The position numbers were made by a program, and so were the translations under genes. From NCBI GenBank assembly GCA_963848295.1, contig CAWKDB010000011.1:416001-480000 (forward strand): DNA of 64,000 bases, written 5' to 3'. Positions 18,900 to 58,125 of the stretch are shown piece after piece; within the stretch, counting starts at the first letter, position 1; each line of letters opens with the position of its first letter. The notes beneath the pieces are model-generated. The model searched no databases and was not told the DNA's origin. It was given only the letters and a program-made list of their open reading frames with translations. The stretch comes from an uncultured delta proteobacterium (GTDB lineage: Bacteria > Myxococcota_A > Polyangia > Haliangiales > Haliangiaceae).

Positions 18900-19511
18900 T
18901 CAGGCCGCGCGCGTCCACGCGACGTGATGATCGTCGAACGCGTGGCGCCAGTCGCCGCCCCATTCCCAGCCGAGCTCGTCGAACGCGGCGACGACCGGTC
19001 CCGGGCGCACGATCATGCCGGGGCGAATGTCGCGGCGATCGGCGAACGCGGCGCCGGCAGGCGGCTCGATGCGATCCGGCTTGCGCCACGGATTCTCGAC
19101 CGGGTTGAGATCGATCGCGCGACCGAGCGCATGGGCCGACAGGACGGTCGTCCCGGCGACGACGCGAAAGTTGAACGCCGACGAGTTGTCCGCCGCCATC
19201 GATGCATCGTCGGAGGCCGCGAAGTCATCGACCAGCCGGAGCGAACGGATCGGAAAGCCGAGCGTATACAACCGGCGGAACAACGTGACCGCGTGAGGCG
19301 CGATCGCGGCCGCGACGACGAGCTCGCCGCGCGCGACCCCGCCGTCCATCGCGACGTGATCGACCGTGAGGTAGGCGAGCTGCGCGAAGTCCGGGCACCG
19401 CGCATCGTCGTCGCGATGCGAGACGCGCCGCATGCGCGCTCGCACCTCCTCGGGCACCGGCGACACCGTCGCGGCGAAGGCTCGACTCGGCGGCGCGAAT
19501 AACGCGCCCAC
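18900..19511 (-). CDS. M15 family metallopeptidase (D-Ala-D-Ala/L-Ala-D-Glu peptidase-like)
   Basis: DNSSAFNFR, SAHALGRAIDLNP, WGGDW...DDHH; GTG start overlaps the upstream TAG (TAGTG). Confidence 0.88.
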   Translation of the reverse strand: MGALFAPPSRAFAATVSPVPEEVRARMRRVSHRDDDARCPDFAQLAYLTVDHVAMDGGVARGELVVAAAIAPHAVTLFRRLYTLGFPIRSLRLVDDFAASDDASMAADNSSAFNFRVVAGTTVLSAHALGRAIDLNPVENPWRKPDRIEPPAGAAFADRRDIRPGMIVRPGPVVAAFDELGWEWGGDWRHAFDDHHVAWTRAA

Positions 19512-20695
19512 TACTGGCTCGGCGATTCCGGATTCGCAGCCGGAGCCGGTGCCGTTCCCGCTGCCGCTGCCGTCCCCGATGCCGATGCCGGTGCCGTACC
19601 CGATGCCGATGCCGGTGCCGTACCCGATGCCGATGCCGGTGCCGTACCCGATGCCGATGCCGGTGCCGTACCCGATGCCGATGCCGCCGCCGCTGCCGGC
19701 TTCGCTGCCGCTGCCGTTCCCGCTGCCGCTGGCCGCGCAGCGATCGGCTGCGGCGGCGCGATCGGCGGGAGATGGACGAGCGTCGCACTCCGCCGCATCG
19801 CGAACAGCGCGAACGGATGTTGTGGATGCGCGGTCGCGAACTTGTCGTACTCGCCGCGCGCCTTGCCCCACTGGCCGGCGCGATCGAGCACCGAAGCGAG
19901 CTGGAATCGCGCGTCGTCCTCGGCGACCTCGGCCGCGATCGCGGCATCGAGCTGGGTGATCGCCGCCGGCAGCTCATTGACCCGACTCCGCGCGACCCCG
20001 ATCATGTAGTGCATCTCGGCGGCGCGTGGCCCGGTCGGCTCGATCGTCAACGCTTGTTCGAGCGGCGCGATCACTTCGCTGAACTTCTGCGCTTTGAATG
20101 CGGCGCTCGCCGTCTTCATCGCGGCGTCGACCGCGATCGTGCCGGCCTGCTTGACGCGTGCGACGAGCAACTCGCGCTCGGGCTTCGGGATCGGCGCGCC
20201 GTCGAGCTCGCCGAGGCGCTTGGCGGCCTCGGTTCGCTTGCCCGCTTCGAGCAGCGAGTAGAGCTCGAGCACCTTGGCATCGGCCGCATCGCGCGCCACC
20301 GCGCGGGTCGTCGCTTCGTCCGCCCGCCGGACAGCCGCATCGCGCTCGCTCGCGGCCTTGTCGCGGCCATCGACCAGATCCGCCGCTCGGCTGCGATAGA
20401 GCAAGTATGCGCCCGACGCGCACAGCGTCGTGAACACGAGGTACGCGACGAACGAGTTGAGGTTGAGCCCACGCGTCCGCCGGCGCTGGACCTCGACGAG
20501 CGCTCCGATCGACTCGGCGAGTTGACTGACCTGGAGCTGGGTGCGCCGGGTCTGCGAGACCTGGTCATCGAGCTTGCGGCGCAAGCCATCGAGCAGCGCC
20601 CAGCCGTCGGCGTCGTCGTGCGCGCCCGGATCGGCCTCCGGCGCCCCTGCTGGACGAGGCTCGGGCTCGGGCTCGGGCCGGGCGGCGACGGTCAT
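19511..20695 (-). CDS. Membrane-anchored coiled-coil/TPR protein (CpoB/YbgF-like C-terminus)
   Basis: Coiled coil, TM helix, TPR motifs (AEMHYMIGVA, DARFQLASVLD, YDKFATAHPQHPFA); ASASGTAP repeat tail. Confidence 0.8.
   Translation of the reverse strand: MTVAARPEPEPEPRPAGAPEADPGAHDDADGWALLDGLRRKLDDQVSQTRRTQLQVSQLAESIGALVEVQRRRTRGLNLNSFVAYLVFTTLCASGAYLLYRSRAADLVDGRDKAASERDAAVRRADEATTRAVARDAADAKVLELYSLLEAGKRTEAAKRLGELDGAPIPKPERELLVARVKQAGTIAVDAAMKTASAAFKAQKFSEVIAPLEQALTIEPTGPRAAEMHYMIGVARSRVNELPAAITQLDAAIAAEVAEDDARFQLASVLDRAGQWGKARGEYDKFATAHPQHPFALFAMRRSATLVHLPPIAPPQPIAARPAAAGTAAAAKPAAAAASASGTAPASASGTAPASASGTAPASASGTAPASASGTAAAAGTAPAPAANPESPSQ
19540..19731. repeat. Hexamer-based tandem repeat, including 4 copies of the 24-mer CCGATGCCGATGCCGGTGCCGTAC
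   Basis: Read directly; lies in the 3' end of the TPR gene. Confidence 0.9.
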
Positions 20696-20806
20696 CGCCC
20701 GTTCGTGCCCGGAAACCGCTGCCAAATCAAGCGCTCCGTTCGCATTGAGCACCCCCGTCGAGCCTGCTATGGTGCGCCGGCCCGAGTCTGCCTCGGGCGA
20801 GTTGAC

Positions 20807-22342
20807 ATGACCCTGCTCTACGACTGGCTGAAGAAGGCCGCAAAGGCCCAAGGCAACAACAAGGCCGTCGTCTACCGGGACAACTACCTGTCGTGGCGCG
20901 GCTTGCTCCACCGCGTCGATCGCCGCGCGCAAGAGTTCAAGAGCATGGGGATCAAAGAGGGCGCGTGGGTCGGGCTGATGCTCGGCAACGTCCCCGACTT
21001 CGTGATCCTCGCGCTCGCGCTGTCGAAGCTCGAGGCGACGATCGTCCCGATCGACCCGACGACCGGTGGGCGCGAGCTCGAGCTGATCCTCGCCGCCGCG
21101 CCGTTGCGCGCACTGGTCACTCGTCCGCGCGGTAGCGAAGGCTCGATCAGCGCGAACGGGACGAGCGCCCCGGTGCCGCCGTCGACCCTGCCTCGCGCTC
21201 GCGTCTCACGCCCGACCTCGCCACTCCCCGGCGTGCCCACGGTCGTGCCGTCCGCCGATGCCGCCGAGGTTCGCCGCCGCCTACAAGGCACGCTGCTGAC
21301 GTGCTCGGTCTACAAGCGCAGCCCGCCCGATCACGGCGTCGATCCGATCGCCGTGCTGTTCACCGCCGATTCGCTCGGCGACCCCAAGGGGGTGCTGCGC
21401 ACCGACAAGAACACGATCGCGGCGGTCGACCACGCGATCGCCGCGCTCGCGATGACGACCAAGACCAAGGTGTTGGTCGCGATGCCGCTGTTCCACGCCT
21501 ACGGCTGGGACCTCGGCTTCCTCCCGACGCTCAAGCTCGGCTCGTCGATGTTCCTCGAAGAAGAGGTCTCGGCCCGCCGGATCGGCAAGCTCGTCCGCGA
21601 GCACGACGTCGACGTGTTGCCCGGCACGCCTGCGATGTACGCCGAGCTCGCGAAGCTGCCGACCGCGAAGAAGATCGAGGTCGCGAACCCGAAGTACATC
21701 TCCGCGGGCAGCCGGCTCGATCAGAGCGTCGCCGACATGTTCCTCGCCGAGTACGGCGTCAAGATCCTCAGCTGCTACCACTCGACCGAGGCCGCGACGG
21801 TCGCGCTCGACGACACCGGCAAGTACCCGACCACGGTCGGCAAGCCGATCGATGGCGTCGAAGTGAAGATCACGTCGCCCGATGGCAAAGCTGCCGGCGC
21901 GAAAGAGGGCCAGATCTGGGTCAGGAGCAAGACCCTGTCGCCGAAGTCGATCGGGCCGTTCGACGGCGAGGACAAGCCGACGACCCGCGCGTCCGGGATG
22001 GTCGCGATCGGCGCGATCGACAAGGCGGGCTGGCTCCGCACCGGCGACCTCGGCAAGATCGACAAGAACGGCCGGCTCGCGATCACCGGTCGCGAGGACG
22101 ATGTCGTCAAGGTCGACGGCAAGCGCGTCGCGCTCGGCGAGGTCGAGGGCTGCCTCGAGTCATTCCCGAAGATCAAGGCCGCGCAGGCAACGGTCGTCAC
22201 CGATCCGATGGCGGGCGCGATGGTCGTCGCGCGTGTCGTGATGAAGACGAAGTGCGGCGCCGAAGAGATCATCGATCACTGCGCGCGCAACCTGGCGCCG
22301 TACAAAGTGCCGCGTCGCATCGAGTTCTGCGAAGCGATCTGA
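20807..22342 (+). CDS. Class I adenylate-forming (AMP-binding) family protein with degenerate motifs
   Basis: FTADSLGDPKGV, PLFHAYG, WLRTGDLG, GREDD, LAPYKVPRRIEF. Confidence 0.88.
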   Translation: MTLLYDWLKKAAKAQGNNKAVVYRDNYLSWRGLLHRVDRRAQEFKSMGIKEGAWVGLMLGNVPDFVILALALSKLEATIVPIDPTTGGRELELILAAAPLRALVTRPRGSEGSISANGTSAPVPPSTLPRARVSRPTSPLPGVPTVVPSADAAEVRRRLQGTLLTCSVYKRSPPDHGVDPIAVLFTADSLGDPKGVLRTDKNTIAAVDHAIAALAMTTKTKVLVAMPLFHAYGWDLGFLPTLKLGSSMFLEEEVSARRIGKLVREHDVDVLPGTPAMYAELAKLPTAKKIEVANPKYISAGSRLDQSVADMFLAEYGVKILSCYHSTEAATVALDDTGKYPTTVGKPIDGVEVKITSPDGKAAGAKEGQIWVRSKTLSPKSIGPFDGEDKPTTRASGMVAIGAIDKAGWLRTGDLGKIDKNGRLAITGREDDVVKVDGKRVALGEVEGCLESFPKIKAAQATVVTDPMAGAMVVARVVMKTKCGAEEIIDHCARNLAPYKVPRRIEFCEAI

Positions 22343-22714: not shown

Positions 22715-23401
22715 CTAATTGATGACGACGAGCTCGCCGGCGTCGTGGCCGCAGAACCTCGCGTTGAGATCGTACTTCGCGCCGCACACGGGACAGATCC
22801 GCGCGACGACGCCCGCCGGCTCGGTCGCACCGCGCTTGCGCGGTCGAGTCGCGTGATAGACCGCAAACGCGACGAGCTCGGTGCCATCGTGCGGACACTC
22901 TCGCAGCCCGTGCTCGAACGCGCGGCGACACGCCAGGCAGACGAGGCCAGCGCTCTTGCCGAGCGCGAGCGAGCGCAACGGACTGCCGAGCAGATCGGTC
23001 GGAGTGACCAGTCGGCGCGCGTCGCGCGTGCAGTACGTCATGCCGTGATACTCGACGCGGCACGTCGGACACACCATGGCGCCTGACGATGTCGTCGGTG
23101 CCGACGCGACGACGGCCAAGCCGCCGCCGCCACCACCGCCGCGCACCATCTGCGGTCGCGTACGTGGCCGCGGAGGTGGCGGTGACGCAACCGCGGCGAC
23201 TTGCTGTGGCGGCGGCGCCTCGACCGCGGCCGGTGCGGCGTGACCGCGGCGGCGAAGGATCACCGCCATCGCGACGAGCCCGACGATCACGAGCGCGAGC
23301 AGTCCGATGACGGCGAGGAGCAACGGCTCCGCAGTCAACAGCGTCGCCGAAGCGAATCCGGAAATCACAACTCCTGCCTCTGCAAAGGCTAGCAACCGCA
23401 A
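22715..23401 (-). CDS. Membrane-anchored triple zinc-ribbon protein
   Basis: TM helix; CPTC..CTRD, CLAC..CPHD, CPVC..CGHD. Confidence 0.75.
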   Translation of the reverse strand: MRLLAFAEAGVVISGFASATLLTAEPLLLAVIGLLALVIVGLVAMAVILRRRGHAAPAAVEAPPPQQVAAVASPPPPRPRTRPQMVRGGGGGGGLAVVASAPTTSSGAMVCPTCRVEYHGMTYCTRDARRLVTPTDLLGSPLRSLALGKSAGLVCLACRRAFEHGLRECPHDGTELVAFAVYHATRPRKRGATEPAGVVARICPVCGAKYDLNARFCGHDAGELVVIN

Positions 23402-23453
23402 TTCTGTCGGTCAACGCGCATGTTTGTCGGTCGACGAGGTACTACCTCGCCGC

Positions 23454-25157
23454 ATGCCCGACCTCGTGATCGGCGGTCGACGCGCCGCGCCGGTGCGCCC
23501 ATGGCGCGCTGCGGTGATCGGCATCGCGCTCCTCGGGGTCGCAGTCGTCGTCGCGTGGTTCATCTATCGCAGATCGGTCGCCTACGACATTCCCGGAGGT
23601 GAGGTCAGCGGCGAGCTTACGGTGACCGCACCCTCGGCGGGGGCGCTTGCCCGGGTCGCGTTCGGGGCCTCGTCGCTCGAGTGGGTCGGGGGCATCCCGG
23701 TGCTGCGTGCAACCGGTGATGCCCACGCGATCGGTGCCGCCCAGGGCCGGCTGCTCGCGCCCCTGCTGGCTGCGGTGGTTCGGGCGCATCAGGCATCGAT
23801 CGAGGGCACGGTCGCCGATGATGGCCTCCTCGGTGGCACGACCCACCACATGCGGCTCAACTGGCGCTGGCGGTTTGTCGACGACGGCGTGTCCGACTCC
23901 GACCGTCGGATGGTCGCCGGCTTGATGCGAGGCGCCGCGGCGAGCGGCGTGTCGCTCTCGTTCGACGACCTGCTGCGCGACCAGGCGGTGCTCGACATCG
24001 GGGTGCCGTCGCCAGCGAGCTCCGAGACCGAGGAGCGTAGCCTCGCTCACAGCCTGACGGTGATTGCACAACAAGCGCAAGCACCGGCCCGCGTCTGGAT
24101 CGGCCGCAGCTTCTCGCTGAGCGGGCTCGACGACGGCGGCGACAACGAGATCCCGCTGGTCGAGATCGCCCATCCAGCCGGCAAGATCGCGTGGGCGACC
24201 GTCGGGTGGCCAGGAGAGATCGGCGCCGTGACCGGGATCAACGCCGAAGGCATCGCGGTCATGGTTCATCCGACGCGCACGGGCGATGTCCGCCCGACGC
24301 GCGACGCGAGACCGATCGCCATGCTCGCGCGCGCCGTGCTCGAGCAGGCCAAGACGCTCGATCAGGCGATCGCCTTGATCGAGCAAACGCCGACCCTTGG
24401 CGCGGCCGCGTTTGTCGTGGTCGACGGCGCCTCCGGCAAATGGTTGCGCGTCGAACGCACGCCGAGCAAAGCGATCGTCGAACGCGCACCGAAGTCGCCC
24501 GCGATCGGCGATGTGCTCGAGACCAACGCGCTCGCGTCGGATCCGGAGAACGACCGCGCTAGGCGAATGCTCGCGACTGTTCCGCGGGTCGCACGCGCGG
24601 CGCGGCTCGTGCGTGCTCCTCTTCCCGACGTCGAGGCGATGGCGGCGATCCTGCGCGATACCCGGGGCGACGCCGACGCACCCCGTCCGGCCGGACATCG
24701 CGGCACGATCGATGACGGTCGCGCCGTCCACGTCGCGATCTTCGATCCGACGTCGCTCGAGTTATGGGTCGCGGACCCGCGCGCCGGCGGACGATTTCGC
24801 GGGTTCGATCTGCGCCACGAGCTACGCGGCGAAGGCGATCGCGCCGCGCCGCCCGCAGACATTCCGCCCGATCCGGCCGCGGACCCGGACCGACGCGCCG
24901 ACCTCGTCGCCGCACGCGCCGATCTGCGCGACGCTCGCGCTGCGCTCGTTCGCGGTGACGACGAGCTCGCAGCCGAGGCTTGTGCGCGCGCACTCGCGCG
25001 GCAGCCGCAGCTGCCGGAGGCGCTGGAGCTGGCCGGCCAGATCGCGGCCGAACGCGGCGACAACGCCCGCGCGCGGGCGCTGTATCAGCAATGGCTGGAC
25101 GGCGGAGCCGATGATCCGCATGGCGAAGAGCGAGCACGCGCGCTCCTCGGCCGCTGA
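23454..25157 (+). CDS. C45 family (Ntn-hydrolase/acyltransferase-like) protein with C-terminal TPR
   Basis: GDAHAIGAAQG, WIGRSFS, VGWPGEIGAVTGINAEGIAV, ARAVLEQAKTLDQAI. Confidence 0.8.
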   Translation: MPDLVIGGRRAAPVRPWRAAVIGIALLGVAVVVAWFIYRRSVAYDIPGGEVSGELTVTAPSAGALARVAFGASSLEWVGGIPVLRATGDAHAIGAAQGRLLAPLLAAVVRAHQASIEGTVADDGLLGGTTHHMRLNWRWRFVDDGVSDSDRRMVAGLMRGAAASGVSLSFDDLLRDQAVLDIGVPSPASSETEERSLAHSLTVIAQQAQAPARVWIGRSFSLSGLDDGGDNEIPLVEIAHPAGKIAWATVGWPGEIGAVTGINAEGIAVMVHPTRTGDVRPTRDARPIAMLARAVLEQAKTLDQAIALIEQTPTLGAAAFVVVDGASGKWLRVERTPSKAIVERAPKSPAIGDVLETNALASDPENDRARRMLATVPRVARAARLVRAPLPDVEAMAAILRDTRGDADAPRPAGHRGTIDDGRAVHVAIFDPTSLELWVADPRAGGRFRGFDLRHELRGEGDRAAPPADIPPDPAADPDRRADLVAARADLRDARAALVRGDDELAAEACARALARQPQLPEALELAGQIAAERGDNARARALYQQWLDGGADDPHGEERARALLGR

Positions 25158-25162
25158 CCAAC

Positions 25163-25401
25163 CATCGGCATCGGCATCGGCATCGGCATCGGCATCGGCA
25201 TCGGCATCGGCATCGGCATCGGCATCGGCATCGGCATCGGCATCGGCATCGATCGCATCGCGCATCGGCATCGGCATCGGCATCGGCATCGGCATCGCCA
25301 TCGCCATCGGCATCGGCATCGGCATCGGCATCGGCATCGGCATCGGCAGCGGCATCGGCATCGGCAGCGGCAACGGCGTCGGCAGCGGCAGCGGCAGCGG
25401 C
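25163..25401. repeat. Hexamer microsatellite (GGCATC)n grading into (GGCAGC)n
   Basis: About 14 perfect CATCGG units, then degenerate units. Confidence 0.97.
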
Positions 25402-25449
25402 TTGTTTGACTCCCGCAAAGGCTGCCGGATTCAGCGCCGGCGCGCGCGC

Positions 25450-25792: not shown

Positions 25793-25993
25793 GCGGCGCA
25801 CCGATTCGCCGGGGCCGTCTCGCCCGTCGCGCCGCACTCGCGCCGGCGCCGTGACGAGCGCGGGCACAAATCTCCGCACGCGTCGGTCGATCCAACTCTG
25901 CGGCGGTCGTTCGCACGCGTCGGTGGCCTCGGCGCTCGGCGCGGCGCTGGCGCGAAGCGGCGCAGGGCGACGGCCCCGGCGATCGGAAGCCGC
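25793..25993 (-). ncRNA. Putative structured RNA/hairpin leader of four-helix-bundle gene, copy 1
   Basis: Long rod-like inverted repeat homologous to 26182-26378, with compensatory changes. Confidence 0.65.
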
Positions 25994-26007: not shown

Positions 26008-26160
<153 letters not shown>

Positions 26161-26181: not shown

Positions 26182-26378
26182 GCCGATGAGCGGAACGTCT
26201 CTCTCGCCCTGCGCCGCTTCGCGCGGGTCCCGCGCCGAGCGCCGAGTGCGCCGGCGTCTGCGATCGACCGCCGCGGAGTTGATCGGCCGGCGATTGCGGT
26301 GGTCAGCGCCCGCGCTCGTCACGGGACCCGCGCGAGTGCGGCGCGACGGGCGAGAGAGAGACGTTCCTACCCATCGGC
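26182..26378 (+). ncRNA. Putative structured RNA/hairpin leader of four-helix-bundle gene, copy 2
   Basis: GGAACGTCTCTCTCGCCC pairs with GGGCGAGAGAGAGACGTTCC; TCGCGCGGGTCCCG pairs with CGGGACCCGCGCGA; further nested stems. Confidence 0.65.
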
Positions 26379-26399
26379 CACTCACTTCGGAGGATCATC

Positions 26400-26723: not shown

Positions 26724-26787
26724 GCGCTTGCGCCGGCCGCCGCGCCGGCGAAACCGATTTCGGCACCCTTCGCCGGGCCCAACGAAC

Positions 26788-27280
26788 GGATACGGATCCG
26801 GCAGCGGATCCGGCAGCGGATCCGGCAGCGGATCCGGCAGCGGATCCGGCAGCGGATCCGGCAGCGGATCCGGCAGCGGATCCGGCAGCGGATCCGGCAG
26901 CGGATCCGGCAGCGGATCCGGCAGCGGATCCGGCAGCGGATCCGGCAGCGGATCCGGCAGCGGATCCGGCAGCGGATCCGGCAGCGGATCCGGCAGCGGA
27001 TCCGGCAGCGGATCCGGCGGCGGCGGCGGATACGGCAGCGGATACGGCAGCGGATACGGCGGCGGCAGCGGATACGGCGGCGGCAGCGGATACGGCAGCG
27101 GATACGGCAGCGGATACGGCGGCGGCAGCGGATACGGCGGCGGCAGCGGATACGGCAGCGGATCCGGCACCCGCGGCGGCAGCGGATACGGCACCCGCGG
27201 CGGCAGCGGATACGGCAGCGGATACCGGCGGCGGCGGCGGATACGGCACCCGCGACGGCAGCGGACACGGCGGGGCGGCT
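26788..27280. repeat. Tandem array: 18 x GGATCCGGCAGC, then GGATAC/GGCAGC/GGCGGC hexamer mosaic
   Basis: Read directly; perfect 12-mers span 26794-27009. Confidence 0.97.
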
Positions 27281-28760
27281 ACAGCGGAATGTGCTGATGC
27301 CACGTCGCGGCTGGGCCCGGACCGAACCGAACATCACGCAGCACGTCGACGACGCAGCTCTGCGTCACGCCGCCGAAGTCGCTGTTCTGCGGGTTGAGGT
27401 AGCTGACCGCGCCTTGCGCGTCGACCGCGAGCTCGATGTCGATCGCCAGGTCGGAGATGCCTTGCTTGGCGAGGGCGCGCGTGCACACGTCGAGACGCGC
27501 TCGCACCTTCGCGATCCCTCGCTCGAGCTCGCGACTGCGTGTCGACACGCCTCCGGTCGGTGGCGGTGCAGTCGCCGCTGGGACCTCGAACCGCGAGCCC
27601 TCGCCGCTGCCCGAGCCGACGTCGACCCAGCCGACGCGATGGAACCGCCCGCCGCGATCCGCGGCCTCGATCGTGTGACGACCGGGCATGACCCGGATGC
27701 GCAGCGGCGCCGCACCGAGCTCGACGCCATCGACCCGGACGTCGCGCCGCGCGACGGTCGCGATATCGAGCGCGGCGGTCTGATGCGCGAGCTGCGGGAC
27801 GCCGGCCCAGATCGGCGTGGTCACCGGCGTCGCCTGCGCGAGGTCCGCGAGTTGCGCAGGCGCGAGCGCGATCGCCCGATCGCCGTCGAGCGCTTGGCCG
27901 GCGCCGACCGCCACCGGCGCATGACCCGGCGCACTCGAGCGAACCTGCACGAGCCCGTGGCGACACTCGACGTCGGTGGCATCGTGCTCGCGATCATGCA
28001 CGACGCGGAACTGGGTGCCGCGGACCTCGACCGTGCGATCGCCGGCGACGACCGTGAACGTCTGGCCGGCCGCGCGCGGCGCCACGACGACATCGACCGT
28101 ACCTTCGACCGCGAGCTCGATCGCCTGCGCATCGAACCGGCGTAGCTCGAGCGACGACCGAGGTCCGAGCGACAGCGCGCTCGCATCGCCGAACTGAATG
28201 TCGATCCGGCCATCACCGGTCGCGAGCAACGTGCCCGTGCCGATCGCGCGACCGAACAGCGCGTCGAGATCGGCGACGCGAATGCCGTCGAGCATGACGT
28301 CGCCGGCGACCCGGCTGACCGCGCCGATCACGGGCGTCGGCGGGGCCACGAGGGGGCGAGCAAGCGGTCGCGTCGGTGGTGCCGGCGGTGCGCTCGCGAC
28401 CTCGGGCGAGGCTGCGCCTCTCATCATCGGTACGATCGCGAAGCCAGCGGCGACGAGCCCGGCGGCGCCGAGTGCGGCGAACCACACGCGGCGCGGAATC
28501 CGCGGGCCGAGCGTGACCTTGCTGCGCCGCTCGGTCGATACCGACCAGTGGATGCGCGCGCGCACTTCGTCCCACGAGATCTCGGGAGGTGCGCTCGAGC
28601 GCAGCGCCGGGAACGCGTCGCTCGCGCGGGCGATGCGGGTTCGCGCGGTCGCGCAGCGAGCACAGTCTTTCGCGTGCGAGTCCATCGCGGCGCGTTCGGA
28701 TGCATCGAGCTTGCCGGCGAGCGCGTCGGCCCAGCGGTGAGGCGCTACGTGCCCGATCAC
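27279..28760 (-). CDS. FecR-domain anti-sigma factor (zinc-finger-like N-terminus, PEGA-like and TonB-C-like C-terminus)
   Basis: HAKDCARC, TM helix, VEVRGTQFRV, VRVDGVELG; translationally coupled to the ECF sigma. Confidence 0.85.
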   Translation of the reverse strand: MIGHVAPHRWADALAGKLDASERAAMDSHAKDCARCATARTRIARASDAFPALRSSAPPEISWDEVRARIHWSVSTERRSKVTLGPRIPRRVWFAALGAAGLVAAGFAIVPMMRGAASPEVASAPPAPPTRPLARPLVAPPTPVIGAVSRVAGDVMLDGIRVADLDALFGRAIGTGTLLATGDGRIDIQFGDASALSLGPRSSLELRRFDAQAIELAVEGTVDVVVAPRAAGQTFTVVAGDRTVEVRGTQFRVVHDREHDATDVECRHGLVQVRSSAPGHAPVAVGAGQALDGDRAIALAPAQLADLAQATPVTTPIWAGVPQLAHQTAALDIATVARRDVRVDGVELGAAPLRIRVMPGRHTIEAADRGGRFHRVGWVDVGSGSGEGSRFEVPAATAPPPTGGVSTRSRELERGIAKVRARLDVCTRALAKQGISDLAIDIELAVDAQGAVSYLNPQNSDFGGVTQSCVVDVLRDVRFGPGPAATWHQHIPL

Positions 28761-29488: not shown

Positions 29489-29668
29489 CAATTGAATTGA
29501 TCAACAGGCAACAGGCAACAGGCAATGCCGGATCGTTCGCACGCGGTTCGGATCCAGATTCCTGCCTCCGCGCCGGGCCCTGCCACCGGGGGCGCGACTC
29601 CCTATTGCGCTCAAACCTCCGAACATCGCCTGTTGCCTGTCGCCTGTTGATCAATTGATCAATTTCCG
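29489..29668. repeat. Inverted-repeat-bounded element A: (AATTGATC)(AACAGGC)3 ... (GCCTGTY)3(GATCAATT)2
   Basis: Ends are reverse complements of each other and shared with 57772-58125. Confidence 0.9.
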
Positions 29669-38967: not shown

Positions 38968-39666
38968 CTTGGTCACGACCGCGGACTTGTTCGTCGCCTT
39001 CTCGAGCTCCGTCTTCGCGTCGTTCGCCGCGTCGAGCGTGCGGTACGAGCCGACTCGGATCCGATAGTACTGCTTGCCGTCGACTTCGCCTGGCGTCACG
39101 TACGCCTGTACCCCGCCGGCGTTGACCGATGACAAGAACGCTTCGGCCTCGCTCTTGTCCTGGAACGACGACAGCTGGAGCGTGAACTTGCCCTTCGGCT
39201 TGTCGGCTTTGTCGGCTTTGTCGGCTTTGTCGGCTTTGTCGGCTTTGTCGGCTTTGTCGGCTTTGTCGGCTGGCTTGTCCGCCACCTTGTCGGCTGGCTT
39301 GTCGGTCGGCTTGTCCGCCGCCTTGTCCGGCGCCGGCTTACTCTGCTTGTCCGGCTTGGCGACCGCCCGCGCCTTCTCGAGCTCGGCGATCGTCTTCTCG
39401 ACGTCGCCGCCGTTCGCGTCCGCGCCGGTCAGCGCGCCGCGAAACGACAGCCCACCGTTGCCCTCGAGTCGATCGAGCGCGGTCAGCGGATCGACGGTGG
39501 CTCGAGTCTGGGCGCGATCGAGGTGGCCGCGCGCCTCGACCCGCCGGCCGACCATCACCCCGAGCACGAATACCAGGCCGACGATCACGGAGCCGCCGAA
39601 GAACAAATAGAAGATCTGGCGACCGTCGAGACTGACCTCGATCTTGTCCTTGTACGCCTCGGTCAT
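38962..39666 (-). CDS. SPOR domain protein (FtsN/DedD-like)
   Basis: TM helix, (ADK)n linker from a 9-bp tandem repeat, FTLQLSSF...YYRIRVGSY. Confidence 0.9.
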   Translation of the reverse strand: MTEAYKDKIEVSLDGRQIFYLFFGGSVIVGLVFVLGVMVGRRVEARGHLDRAQTRATVDPLTALDRLEGNGGLSFRGALTGADANGGDVEKTIAELEKARAVAKPDKQSKPAPDKAADKPTDKPADKVADKPADKADKADKADKADKADKADKADKPKGKFTLQLSSFQDKSEAEAFLSSVNAGGVQAYVTPGEVDGKQYYRIRVGSYRTLDAANDAKTELEKATNKSAVVTKL

Positions 39667-57771: not shown

Positions 57772-58125
57772 GAAATTGATCAATTGATCAATTGATCAAT
57801 TGATCAATTGATCAACAGGCAACAGGCAACAGGCAATTGAAGGTGCGGGCTGCGCGGCGGTTGTCGTACGGAGCCTGGCGATCAGAAGACAGGGACCGGG
57901 AGCCGAGCATCCGACCTCCCTGGGTCGACTGCCGATCGTCACCGGGTCTTCTCCGGACGACCGCCGCGAAGCGCCGCTCCGCCGATGCCCCCGGCGGGCA
58001 GCGGCGCCCTGTTCCCTGTTTTCTGATCGTCAGGTTCTGCGCGTTCCGTACAACAACCCGCCGCGCTAGCGGCGCTCCGCCATTGCCCGTTGCCTGTTGC
58101 CTGTTGATCCATTGATCAATTTCCG
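57772..58125. repeat. Inverted-repeat-bounded element B: (AATTGATC)5(AACAGGC)3 ... reverse-complement end, with self-complementary interior
   Basis: Read directly; same termini as 29489-29668. Confidence 0.9.

Follow-up and report, generated by a model that had tools for sequence, protein, structure and literature searches.

A hairpin of about 200 nt stands ahead of a small gene in the genome of an uncultured myxobacterium (G000 hereafter), back to back with a second, similar hairpin ahead of another small gene on the opposite strand. The question raised by this locus is which molecule is being conserved: a leader of the mRNA, an RNA from the other strand, single-stranded DNA (ssDNA), or nothing more than an old palindrome. 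Coordinates below are positions within the window, i.e., the whole stretch of 64,000 nt that was analysed (GCA_963848295.1, CAWKDB010000011.1, 416,001-480,000, forward strand); C2, C10 and C11 are contigs of the same genome, other G numbers are other genomes, and L numbers are loci.

The hairpin and its copies in the genome

The two cassettes form one unit in the order array, gene B, hairpin B, array, hairpin A, gene A, array (Table 1). The C45 acyltransferase and FecR-domain genes that flank the unit are both directed toward it, and each hairpin ends about 20 nt ahead of the start codon of its small gene. In HMM searches, the products of genes A and B pass the cut-offs of PF05635 (46 and 53.6 bits versus 33.8) and TIGR02436 (48.1 and 50.1 versus 24), and both match PDB entry 2gsc (E, 3e-4).

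Table 1. Features of the double cassette and its host flanks in the window
Feature	Position	Strand	Remarks
Hairpin A	26182..26378	+	Shown in gene orientation; outer stem of free sequence, conserved core, loop of ~68 nt
Hairpin A core	GCCGAGCGCC 26234-26243 / GCGCTCGTCAC 26312-26322	+	Contains C.T and C.A mismatches
Hairpin A loop motif	26268-26278	+	
Shine-Dalgarno-like GGAGG of gene A	26389..26393	+	From sequence
Gene A, four-helix-bundle protein, 107 aa	26400..26723	+	PF05635, TIGR02436; pN/pS 0.18 among 10 paralogs
Cassette A 3' tail	26724..26792	+	Conserved in part; truncation varies between copies (by eye)
Right hexamer/dodecamer array, (CGGATCCGGCAG)n and variants	26793..27271		Reaches the stop of the FecR-domain gene
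Middle CGG-N3 hexamer array	26008..26159		Separates the back-to-back hairpins; highly variable between copies
Hairpin B	25793..25993	-	83.7% identity to hairpin A across 153 nt
Hairpin B core	25940-25931 / 25861-25851	-	
Hairpin B loop motif	25906-25896	-	
Gene B, four-helix-bundle protein, 106 aa	25450..25770	-	~70% identity to A; pN/pS 0.14, 9 intact paralogs
Cassette B 3' tail	25402..25449	-	Short, conserved (by eye)
Left (CATCGG)n array	25163..25401		Begins 5 nt past the host stop codon
Host flank (outside the element), C45-family acyltransferase gene	23307..25157	+	In relatives adjoins a convergent kinase-like gene, without the element
Host flank (outside the element), FecR-domain gene	27279..28760	-	In relatives adjoins a gene that here flanks another copy (C2:609601-610149)

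The hairpin is real, and every motif named in the original prediction was recovered in place. In hairpin A (copy 2 of that prediction), these are GGAACGTCTCTC at 26192, GAGAGACGTTCC at 26356, GGGTCC at 26225, GGACCC at 26324, and the invariant blocks at 26204 and 26330; in hairpin B (copy 1, minus strand), the stem motifs lie at 25980-25969, 25819-25808, 25949-25944 and 25849-25844 and the invariant blocks at 25970-25950 and 25843-25820. The predicted folds reach −146.1 kcal/mol for hairpin A (z, −9.5) and −145.2 kcal/mol for hairpin B (z, −7.2), and in neither case was any of 200 shuffles as good. RBS-like sequences lie outside the stem in both copies, as had been noted (GGAGG at 26389 and GAAAGG at 25784-25779). 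That the structure had not been recognised as a known RNA family agrees with an Rfam 15 scan, which gave no match in the window at or above the gathering threshold and, in five loci, left the hairpin free of matches even at E ≤ 10.

The original prediction spoke of two copies. Both are present, but they belong to a set of 23 dispersed copies that head cassettes whose orthologous sites are empty. A covariance model (CM) finds 23 full copies in the genome, every one of them upstream of a four-helix-bundle (TIGR02436) gene, and a strict pattern gives 23 matches versus none for a control pattern. The copies are arranged as 11 head-to-head hairpin pairs within hexamer arrays and one single. Ten A and 10 B hairpins, with 91-99% identity, are invariably paired head to head, and in addition the genome has a diverged pair, a single and a truncated copy. 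Judged by eye, a host gene points its 3' end at the element on 17 of the 22 sides of the 11 pairs, and 6 of these pairs lie between convergent host genes.

The hexamer arrays vary widely in length and unit from copy to copy. Genome-wide, there are 52 clusters of GGN-NNC hexamer arrays, 12 of which adjoin the hairpin family, the others being alone or intragenic. An origin of the GGC-NNC arrays by DGR-like A-to-N mutagenesis was considered and rejected, as there is no DGR reverse transcriptase (RT) here and, in the G061 arrays, the CCG is fixed and the three positions around it vary. The window also holds 24-nt tandem repeats (19545-19736, within the 3' part of the open reading frame [ORF] at 19511-20932 on the minus strand), 9-nt tandem repeats (39195-39334), and a separate repeat family with (AATTGATC)n and (AACAGGC)n arms at 29495-29656, where a 33-nt inverted repeat flanks a 96-nt spacer, and at 57774-57835; AATTGATC occurs 139 times in the genome.

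Stem and cargo gene are under purifying selection. Among the A and B genes, 19 of 20 are intact, with pN/pS as listed in Table 1, and among the paralogs in this genome the linked genes have diverged by 16-18% at synonymous sites, the stems by 2.2% and 1.6%, and the loops by 7.6% and 10.7% (9 pairs). Loops are about 90% alike between copies at unrelated sites, and we therefore rejected a role of the loop as a site-specific guide. Distances among A halves and among B halves are uncorrelated, a pattern consistent with recombination between copies or with a star-like burst.

Fold and covariation across the family

Relatives were sampled through DNA, protein and pattern searches. Clustering left 47 sequences, and removal of two wrongly oriented rows gave an alignment of 45 representatives, to which the unpublished genome G010 contributes one row (it also contributes 1 of the 29 flank loci discussed below, and none of the conclusions hinges on it). 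In its family form, the hairpin has a stem of about 55 bp, a conserved mismatched core, and a loop of about 68 nt that is predicted to be unstructured. The description as rod-like fits the minimum free energy models of the two window copies, but not the family, in which shuffled sequences fold as well as the inner ~68 nt (mean z, 0.05 and −0.16), a part predicted to be unstructured on both strands. The conserved part reads GCGC-N7-9-GCC-GAGCGC ... GCGCTC-GTCAC-N7-8-GCGC and retains particular mismatches, C.T in 41 and C.A in 30 of the 47 sequences. The enclosed loop measures 67-70 nt in 38 of the 45 representatives, within a filter that admitted 62-76 nt, and short-loop variants exist; the motif CCGCCGCRNAG stands at offset 24-25 of the loop in 37 of the 45 and in 29 of 35 additional copies from metagenomes. 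Tandem duplications of the hairpin module, partial or full, occur at L292, L294, L306, L500 and L075, and in some of the duplicates the inner part is deleted between the GCGC blocks.

The compensatory covariation proposed from two copies holds in the larger sets. Among the 45 representatives, 92.5% of cells pair versus 84.8% in shuffled alignments, and 14 of 26 pairs carry two-sided changes, a count that none of 500 shuffles reached. The structure had been derived from these same sequences, and kin are not independent; the test was therefore repeated out of sample on the 35 metagenome copies, with the columns fixed by the search pattern excluded. In this set, 80.4% of cells pair versus 65.7%, there are 94 two-sided cells versus 35 (0 of 500 shuffles), and 14 pairs show two-sided change versus 11.6 (8 of 500 shuffles). 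The outermost arm complements its own partner best in 36 of the 45 representatives and in 26 of the 35 metagenome copies. The claim of selection on structure is supported: two-sided changes keep the pairing, and the stems diverge least. The comparison of two copies could not by itself have shown it, because the outer stems were replaced as blocks between two subfamilies.

Cargo genes, host range and insertion sites

A metagenome scan by a pattern blind to cargo gave at least 122 matches, of which 80 were retrieved and 45 were real hairpins by stem score; the CM confirms most of these 45. Among the matches listed, the gene on the 3' side of these hairpins is a four-helix-bundle gene in 23 cases, GxxExxY in 8, DUF222-HNH in 5 (a family call for which both the DUF222 and the HNH scores are mostly below cut-off), and RAYT in 1, with no gene in 4 and too short a sequence in 4. 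By gene context, one hairpin type accompanies three unrelated cargo genes. In a census of genomes picked for having hairpins, some of whose loci are in the model, a hairpin lies within 1.5 kb of 19 of 30 DUF222-HNH loci (7/7 in G027, 6/7 in G023, 4/7 in G003, 2/2 in G005 and 0/7 in G030), and the two HNH genes of the genome studied here are without one. The HNH gene is constantly on the 3' side of the hairpin, in either orientation. In G005, two inward-facing hairpins enclose each of both HNH genes, and among the metagenome hairpins GxxExxY or four-helix-bundle genes commonly lie between an inward-facing pair. The same array and head-to-head layout recurs in G061, in which the second gene is of another kind. 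On a weakly resolved hairpin tree, the HNH label changes six times, suggesting that cargo partners were probably switched more than once.

Pattern matches occur in 14 of 44 other genomes of the family. Outside it, 3 of 256 genomes were pattern positive, none of these 3 being confirmed by the CM, and viral contigs gave no pattern matches. Confirmed records that bear a family name are Kofleriaceae (Myxococcota), and among the genomes searched the hairpin is, by pattern and CM, restricted to this one myxobacterial family. An earlier and looser contig pattern had yielded 6 CM-confirmed loci of 80.

Comparison of flanks shows what the sites look like without the element. Of 29 relatives, 28 have a convergent gene within about 200 nt after the C45 gene and no element between the two (by eye). 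The ortholog of that convergent gene in the genome studied here lies at C2:612.3-613.8k, where it forms the right flank of another copy (12 of 12 tested). The left flank gene of the C2 copy, in turn, adjoins the FecR gene in G113 (with a gap of 12 nt), G112 and G079, and the junction between the two is empty in G113 and G112. Judged by flank orthology in the relatives, two element copies have thus exchanged flanks reciprocally (window 23307-25157 / 27279-28760 versus C2:609601-613847). The flank junctions map to 313k and 1513k on G112 coordinates, and the swap would correspond either to the inversion, relative to G112, of a segment of about 1.2 Mb lying between oppositely oriented copies or to an assembly mis-join giving the same picture. 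Since copies lie at the joints of this reciprocal change, the family may have an influence on gene order in these soil-dwelling myxobacteria. The element is likewise missing from G113 at the C10:1501k site, whereas the C2:1180k site has the array alone and the C11:317k site a decayed B remnant; given this remnant at a shared site, some copies are old and vertically inherited. The hairpin is present in 0 of 49 host-junction loci. Neither a target duplication nor fixed ends are visible, the nearest empty sites being only about 89% identical.

These exchanges bear on the reading in which no structure is selected at all, and an old palindrome, its complementarity kept by arm-to-arm template switching, has spread passively via repeat recombination. 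The flank swap between copies, the replacement of outer arms as blocks, and the uncorrelated A-half and B-half distances, which recombination or conversion would give, would all fit. However, template switching would erase the specific C.T and C.A mismatches that the family has retained; further, the loop motif and its offset are conserved, the strand skew described below is one-sided, and the cargo genes are under purifying selection. As judged from the alignment, the conserved mismatches largely refute the passive reading, and we consider it very improbable.

Strand preference, mobility and known systems

The two strands of the hairpin are not equivalent. According to predicted energies, the arm duplex is stabler antisense to the gene in 43 of the 45 representatives with DNA parameters and in 40 with RNA parameters, and in 35 and 33, respectively, of the 35 metagenome copies. 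When the outer stem is considered alone, the antisense strand is stabler in 38 versus 6 (DNA) and 36 versus 9 (RNA) representatives and in 29 versus 6 and 27 versus 8 metagenome copies. Across the family, the strand with the better predicted fold is hence the one that corresponds to the minus strand of hairpin A. Single mismatches in gene orientation are A.C rather than G.T (25 versus 15, not significant; 26 versus 6 in the metagenome set) and C.T rather than A.G (36 versus 4; 31 versus 4), which places wobble and purine-purine pairs on the antisense strand. One core column, C.A in 30 and T-A in 13 sequences in gene orientation, would be U-G and U-A on the other strand.

This folding preference argues against an mRNA leader, as far as energy models go. 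A cis-regulatory 5' leader would hide the ribosome-binding site in the stem, or be cut by RNase III, and would keep the passenger gene quiet under read-through, as leaders of insertion sequences (IS) do. The distance from hairpin to ATG is 70-92 nt in most four-helix-bundle cassettes, the hairpin stands directly upstream of GxxExxY genes too, and in 39 of 60 cassettes pairing is predicted between the Shine-Dalgarno sequence (SD) and the 5' flank, which hints at an additional role at the mRNA level. However, the SD pairs with its own flank hardly better than with foreign ones (−11.3 versus −10.4 kcal/mol; own flank among the top 3 in 7 of 25), covariation between SD and anti-SD is weak, and wobble pairs are depleted on the gene strand. 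The hairpin is also kept in many copies that lie 150-640 nt from an HNH gene, often one directed toward the hairpin, or that have no adjacent start codon. We therefore consider the leader unlikely. A discrete RNA of about 200 nt, or a leader, on the gene strand was implied by the original prediction, and this part is not supported, given mismatch types that favour the opposite strand and an SD sequestration that covaries weakly.

The strand skew fits an antisense RNA and ssDNA equally well, bearing in mind that it comes from energy models and from related, nonindependent sequences. An RNA antisense to the cargo gene could be a protein scaffold, an antisense regulator or a processing site, and could arise outward from the cassette or by read-through from a convergent host gene. 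In such an RNA, the mismatches would become G.U and G.A/G.G juxtapositions; the three cargoes all belong to nucleic-acid-acting families; and, as host 3' ends face the element at most pair flanks, read-through would copy the antisense strand. At single HNH-type cassettes, however, the upstream host gene often enters the hairpin in sense (by eye), so that exposure to read-through is not strand consistent; a noisy ORF heuristic splits the orientation of upstream host genes 19 versus 19. No sigma-70 promoter or terminator matches were found, and the loop is predicted to be unstructured on either strand. We regard an antisense RNA as possible but rather unlikely.

The explanation that we favour, with about as much confidence as doubt, is that the hairpin is the conserved head of a multi-copy cassette and likely the recognition structure, formed by antisense ssDNA, of a transposase-less mobile cassette. 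During single-stranded phases of replication or transcription, the antisense strand would extrude the stem of about 55 bp, and a protein would recognise the mismatched core together with the loop motif at its fixed distance. Strand-specific cut-and-join or strand invasion would then copy the cassette to new places, where copies would survive mainly directly behind host stop codons. The Avd-like four-helix-bundle protein may be a cis-preferring nucleic-acid-binding helper, which would account for selection on every paralog. Doublets, head to head or tail to tail, would result when a cassette inserts in the opposite direction where another already lies, and the CGG-N3 arrays, which would grow by slippage, would accompany four-helix-bundle cassettes and be dispensable to the hairpin.

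Against mobility stands the fact that no mobiliser was found and no movement was observed. RAYT was rejected as the cognate mobiliser, since a hairpin accompanies only 1 of 30 RAYT/Y1 loci and G061 (93% complete), with 22 four-helix-bundle matches, has no Y1. A search of G061 for HNH genes of this family at E ≤ 1e-20 was negative as well. A 14-nt likeness of the loop motif to one RAYT-hairpin end was likewise discarded; it is absent in two other RAYT copies and looks, from their comparison, to be due to a deletion in that one copy. Movement through RNA would require a sense transcript to be reverse transcribed with Avd-like help into an antisense cDNA that folds and integrates, as in retron msDNA or DGRs. 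The cDNA would equal the antisense strand, 3' tails of A cassettes are variably truncated, PF05635 is structurally related to DGR Avd according to PMC10053308, and msDNA-like repeats are reported for Nannocystis in titles of the reference list of PMC6868368. However, RT matches in this genome are group II intron-like ORFs or fragments by inspection, with no DGR or retron RT among them, G031 (92% complete) has 7 hairpins and no RVT_1 match, and there is no Rfam msr match. Such a route thus seems quite improbable.

Other repeated elements were seen alongside. A different family of hairpins of about 200 nt, with CCTGTG...CCACAGG ends, is found at C10:3445538-3445747 and 11 further places and stands upstream of most of the nine RAYT-like Y1 genes here; RAYT-like genes are multi-copy across the genus, with up to 34 matches. 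In a second type of four-helix-bundle cassette, the repeats at the termini and the hexamer arms are inverted; the genome has 12 end motifs of this type, with sites at C2:271071, C10:2647165, C10:3467596, C2:797203 (L039), C11:722k and C10:2116.7k. Several of these cassettes directly adjoin group II intron-like RT sequence, which suggests that such an intron targets them. In G061, an identical short end sequence adjoins the hexamer arrays of several cassettes (L212, L218, L220 and L194), at L212 beside an apparent transposase 3' end (by eye), and an IS may thus target the arrays.

A broader reading, doubtful in our view though worth stating, is that of a transposase-less class of elements in which a strand-specific hairpin with a fixed-length open loop is a universal handle by which unrelated passengers copy themselves. 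The handle would be ssDNA or an outward antisense RNA, and the passengers would be the Avd-like four-helix bundle, the PD-(D/E)XK protein GxxExxY, and DUF222-HNH. If true, it would be the first biochemical substrate for three protein families and a source of genome inversions. Genes for TIGR02436, GxxExxY and DUF222-HNH proteins occur commonly and in multiple copies, and they are unexplained. With a conserved, strand-biased 200-nt hairpin shared by the three, assays of binding and mobility gain a defined substrate, which makes the function of the proteins and the spread of the cassettes directly testable.

A search of openly available main texts found no published description of the element; the new points are the strand skew, the cargo swapping and the empty sites. 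Among known systems, ORF-bearing intervening sequences (IVS) of 23S rRNA share the PF05635/TIGR02436 protein and a small gene with repeats and hairpins but no transposase. In contrast to these, the element lies outside rRNA, its gene is not within a stem, the complex nonrepetitive hairpin is wholly upstream, and the arrays here are directly oriented; a repeat-armed four-helix-bundle cassette type is present separately in this genome. DGRs also place an Avd-like fold beside a conserved structured nucleic acid, but neither a DGR RT nor a template or variable repeat was found, and the hairpin has no strong match outside the cassettes. Unlike in retron msr-msd, the downstream genes are four-helix-bundle, GxxExxY or HNH genes. 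The inward-facing pair around DUF222-HNH genes in G005 recalls a MITE or IS, but here every end forms a 200-nt hairpin of its own, ends that stand singly or in back-to-back pairs are equally common, and no target duplication or transposase was seen.

Two comparisons come closer. Like integron attC sites, as described by Nivina (2016; PMC5027507), the hairpin is variable in sequence, conserved in structure and tied to small gene cassettes, and its strand skew resembles that of these ssDNA sites, whose bottom strands fold better through G:T pairs and purine skew; unlike attC, it lies upstream of the gene, its copies are dispersed rather than arrayed, and RYYYAAC/GTTRRRY boxes stand at the stem base in 0 of 47 sequences. 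REPINs, according to Bertels & Rainey (2011; PMC3116915) and Di Nocera (2013; PMC3733652), are nonautonomous, extragenic, multi-copy hairpins with compensatory changes, often near host 3' ends, in which the length of the spacer (71 bp in GI REPINs) matters above its sequence. The hairpin shares with them an inverted repeat around a length-conserved spacer (its length window being partly set by the filter) and multi-copy, extragenic occurrence. However, its arms do not have the form of GTAG-tagged REP palindromes (3 of 47 sequences have GTAG close to an arm end), CGTC occurs only within the paired core, it is about 200 nt long and bears protein cargo, it thrives in a genome without a Y1 match, and the RAYT-like genes here carry their own, different hairpin. 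By these marks it is neither a REPIN nor an attC site; by analogy, it would nevertheless work most like a REPIN or an attC-type ssDNA handle.
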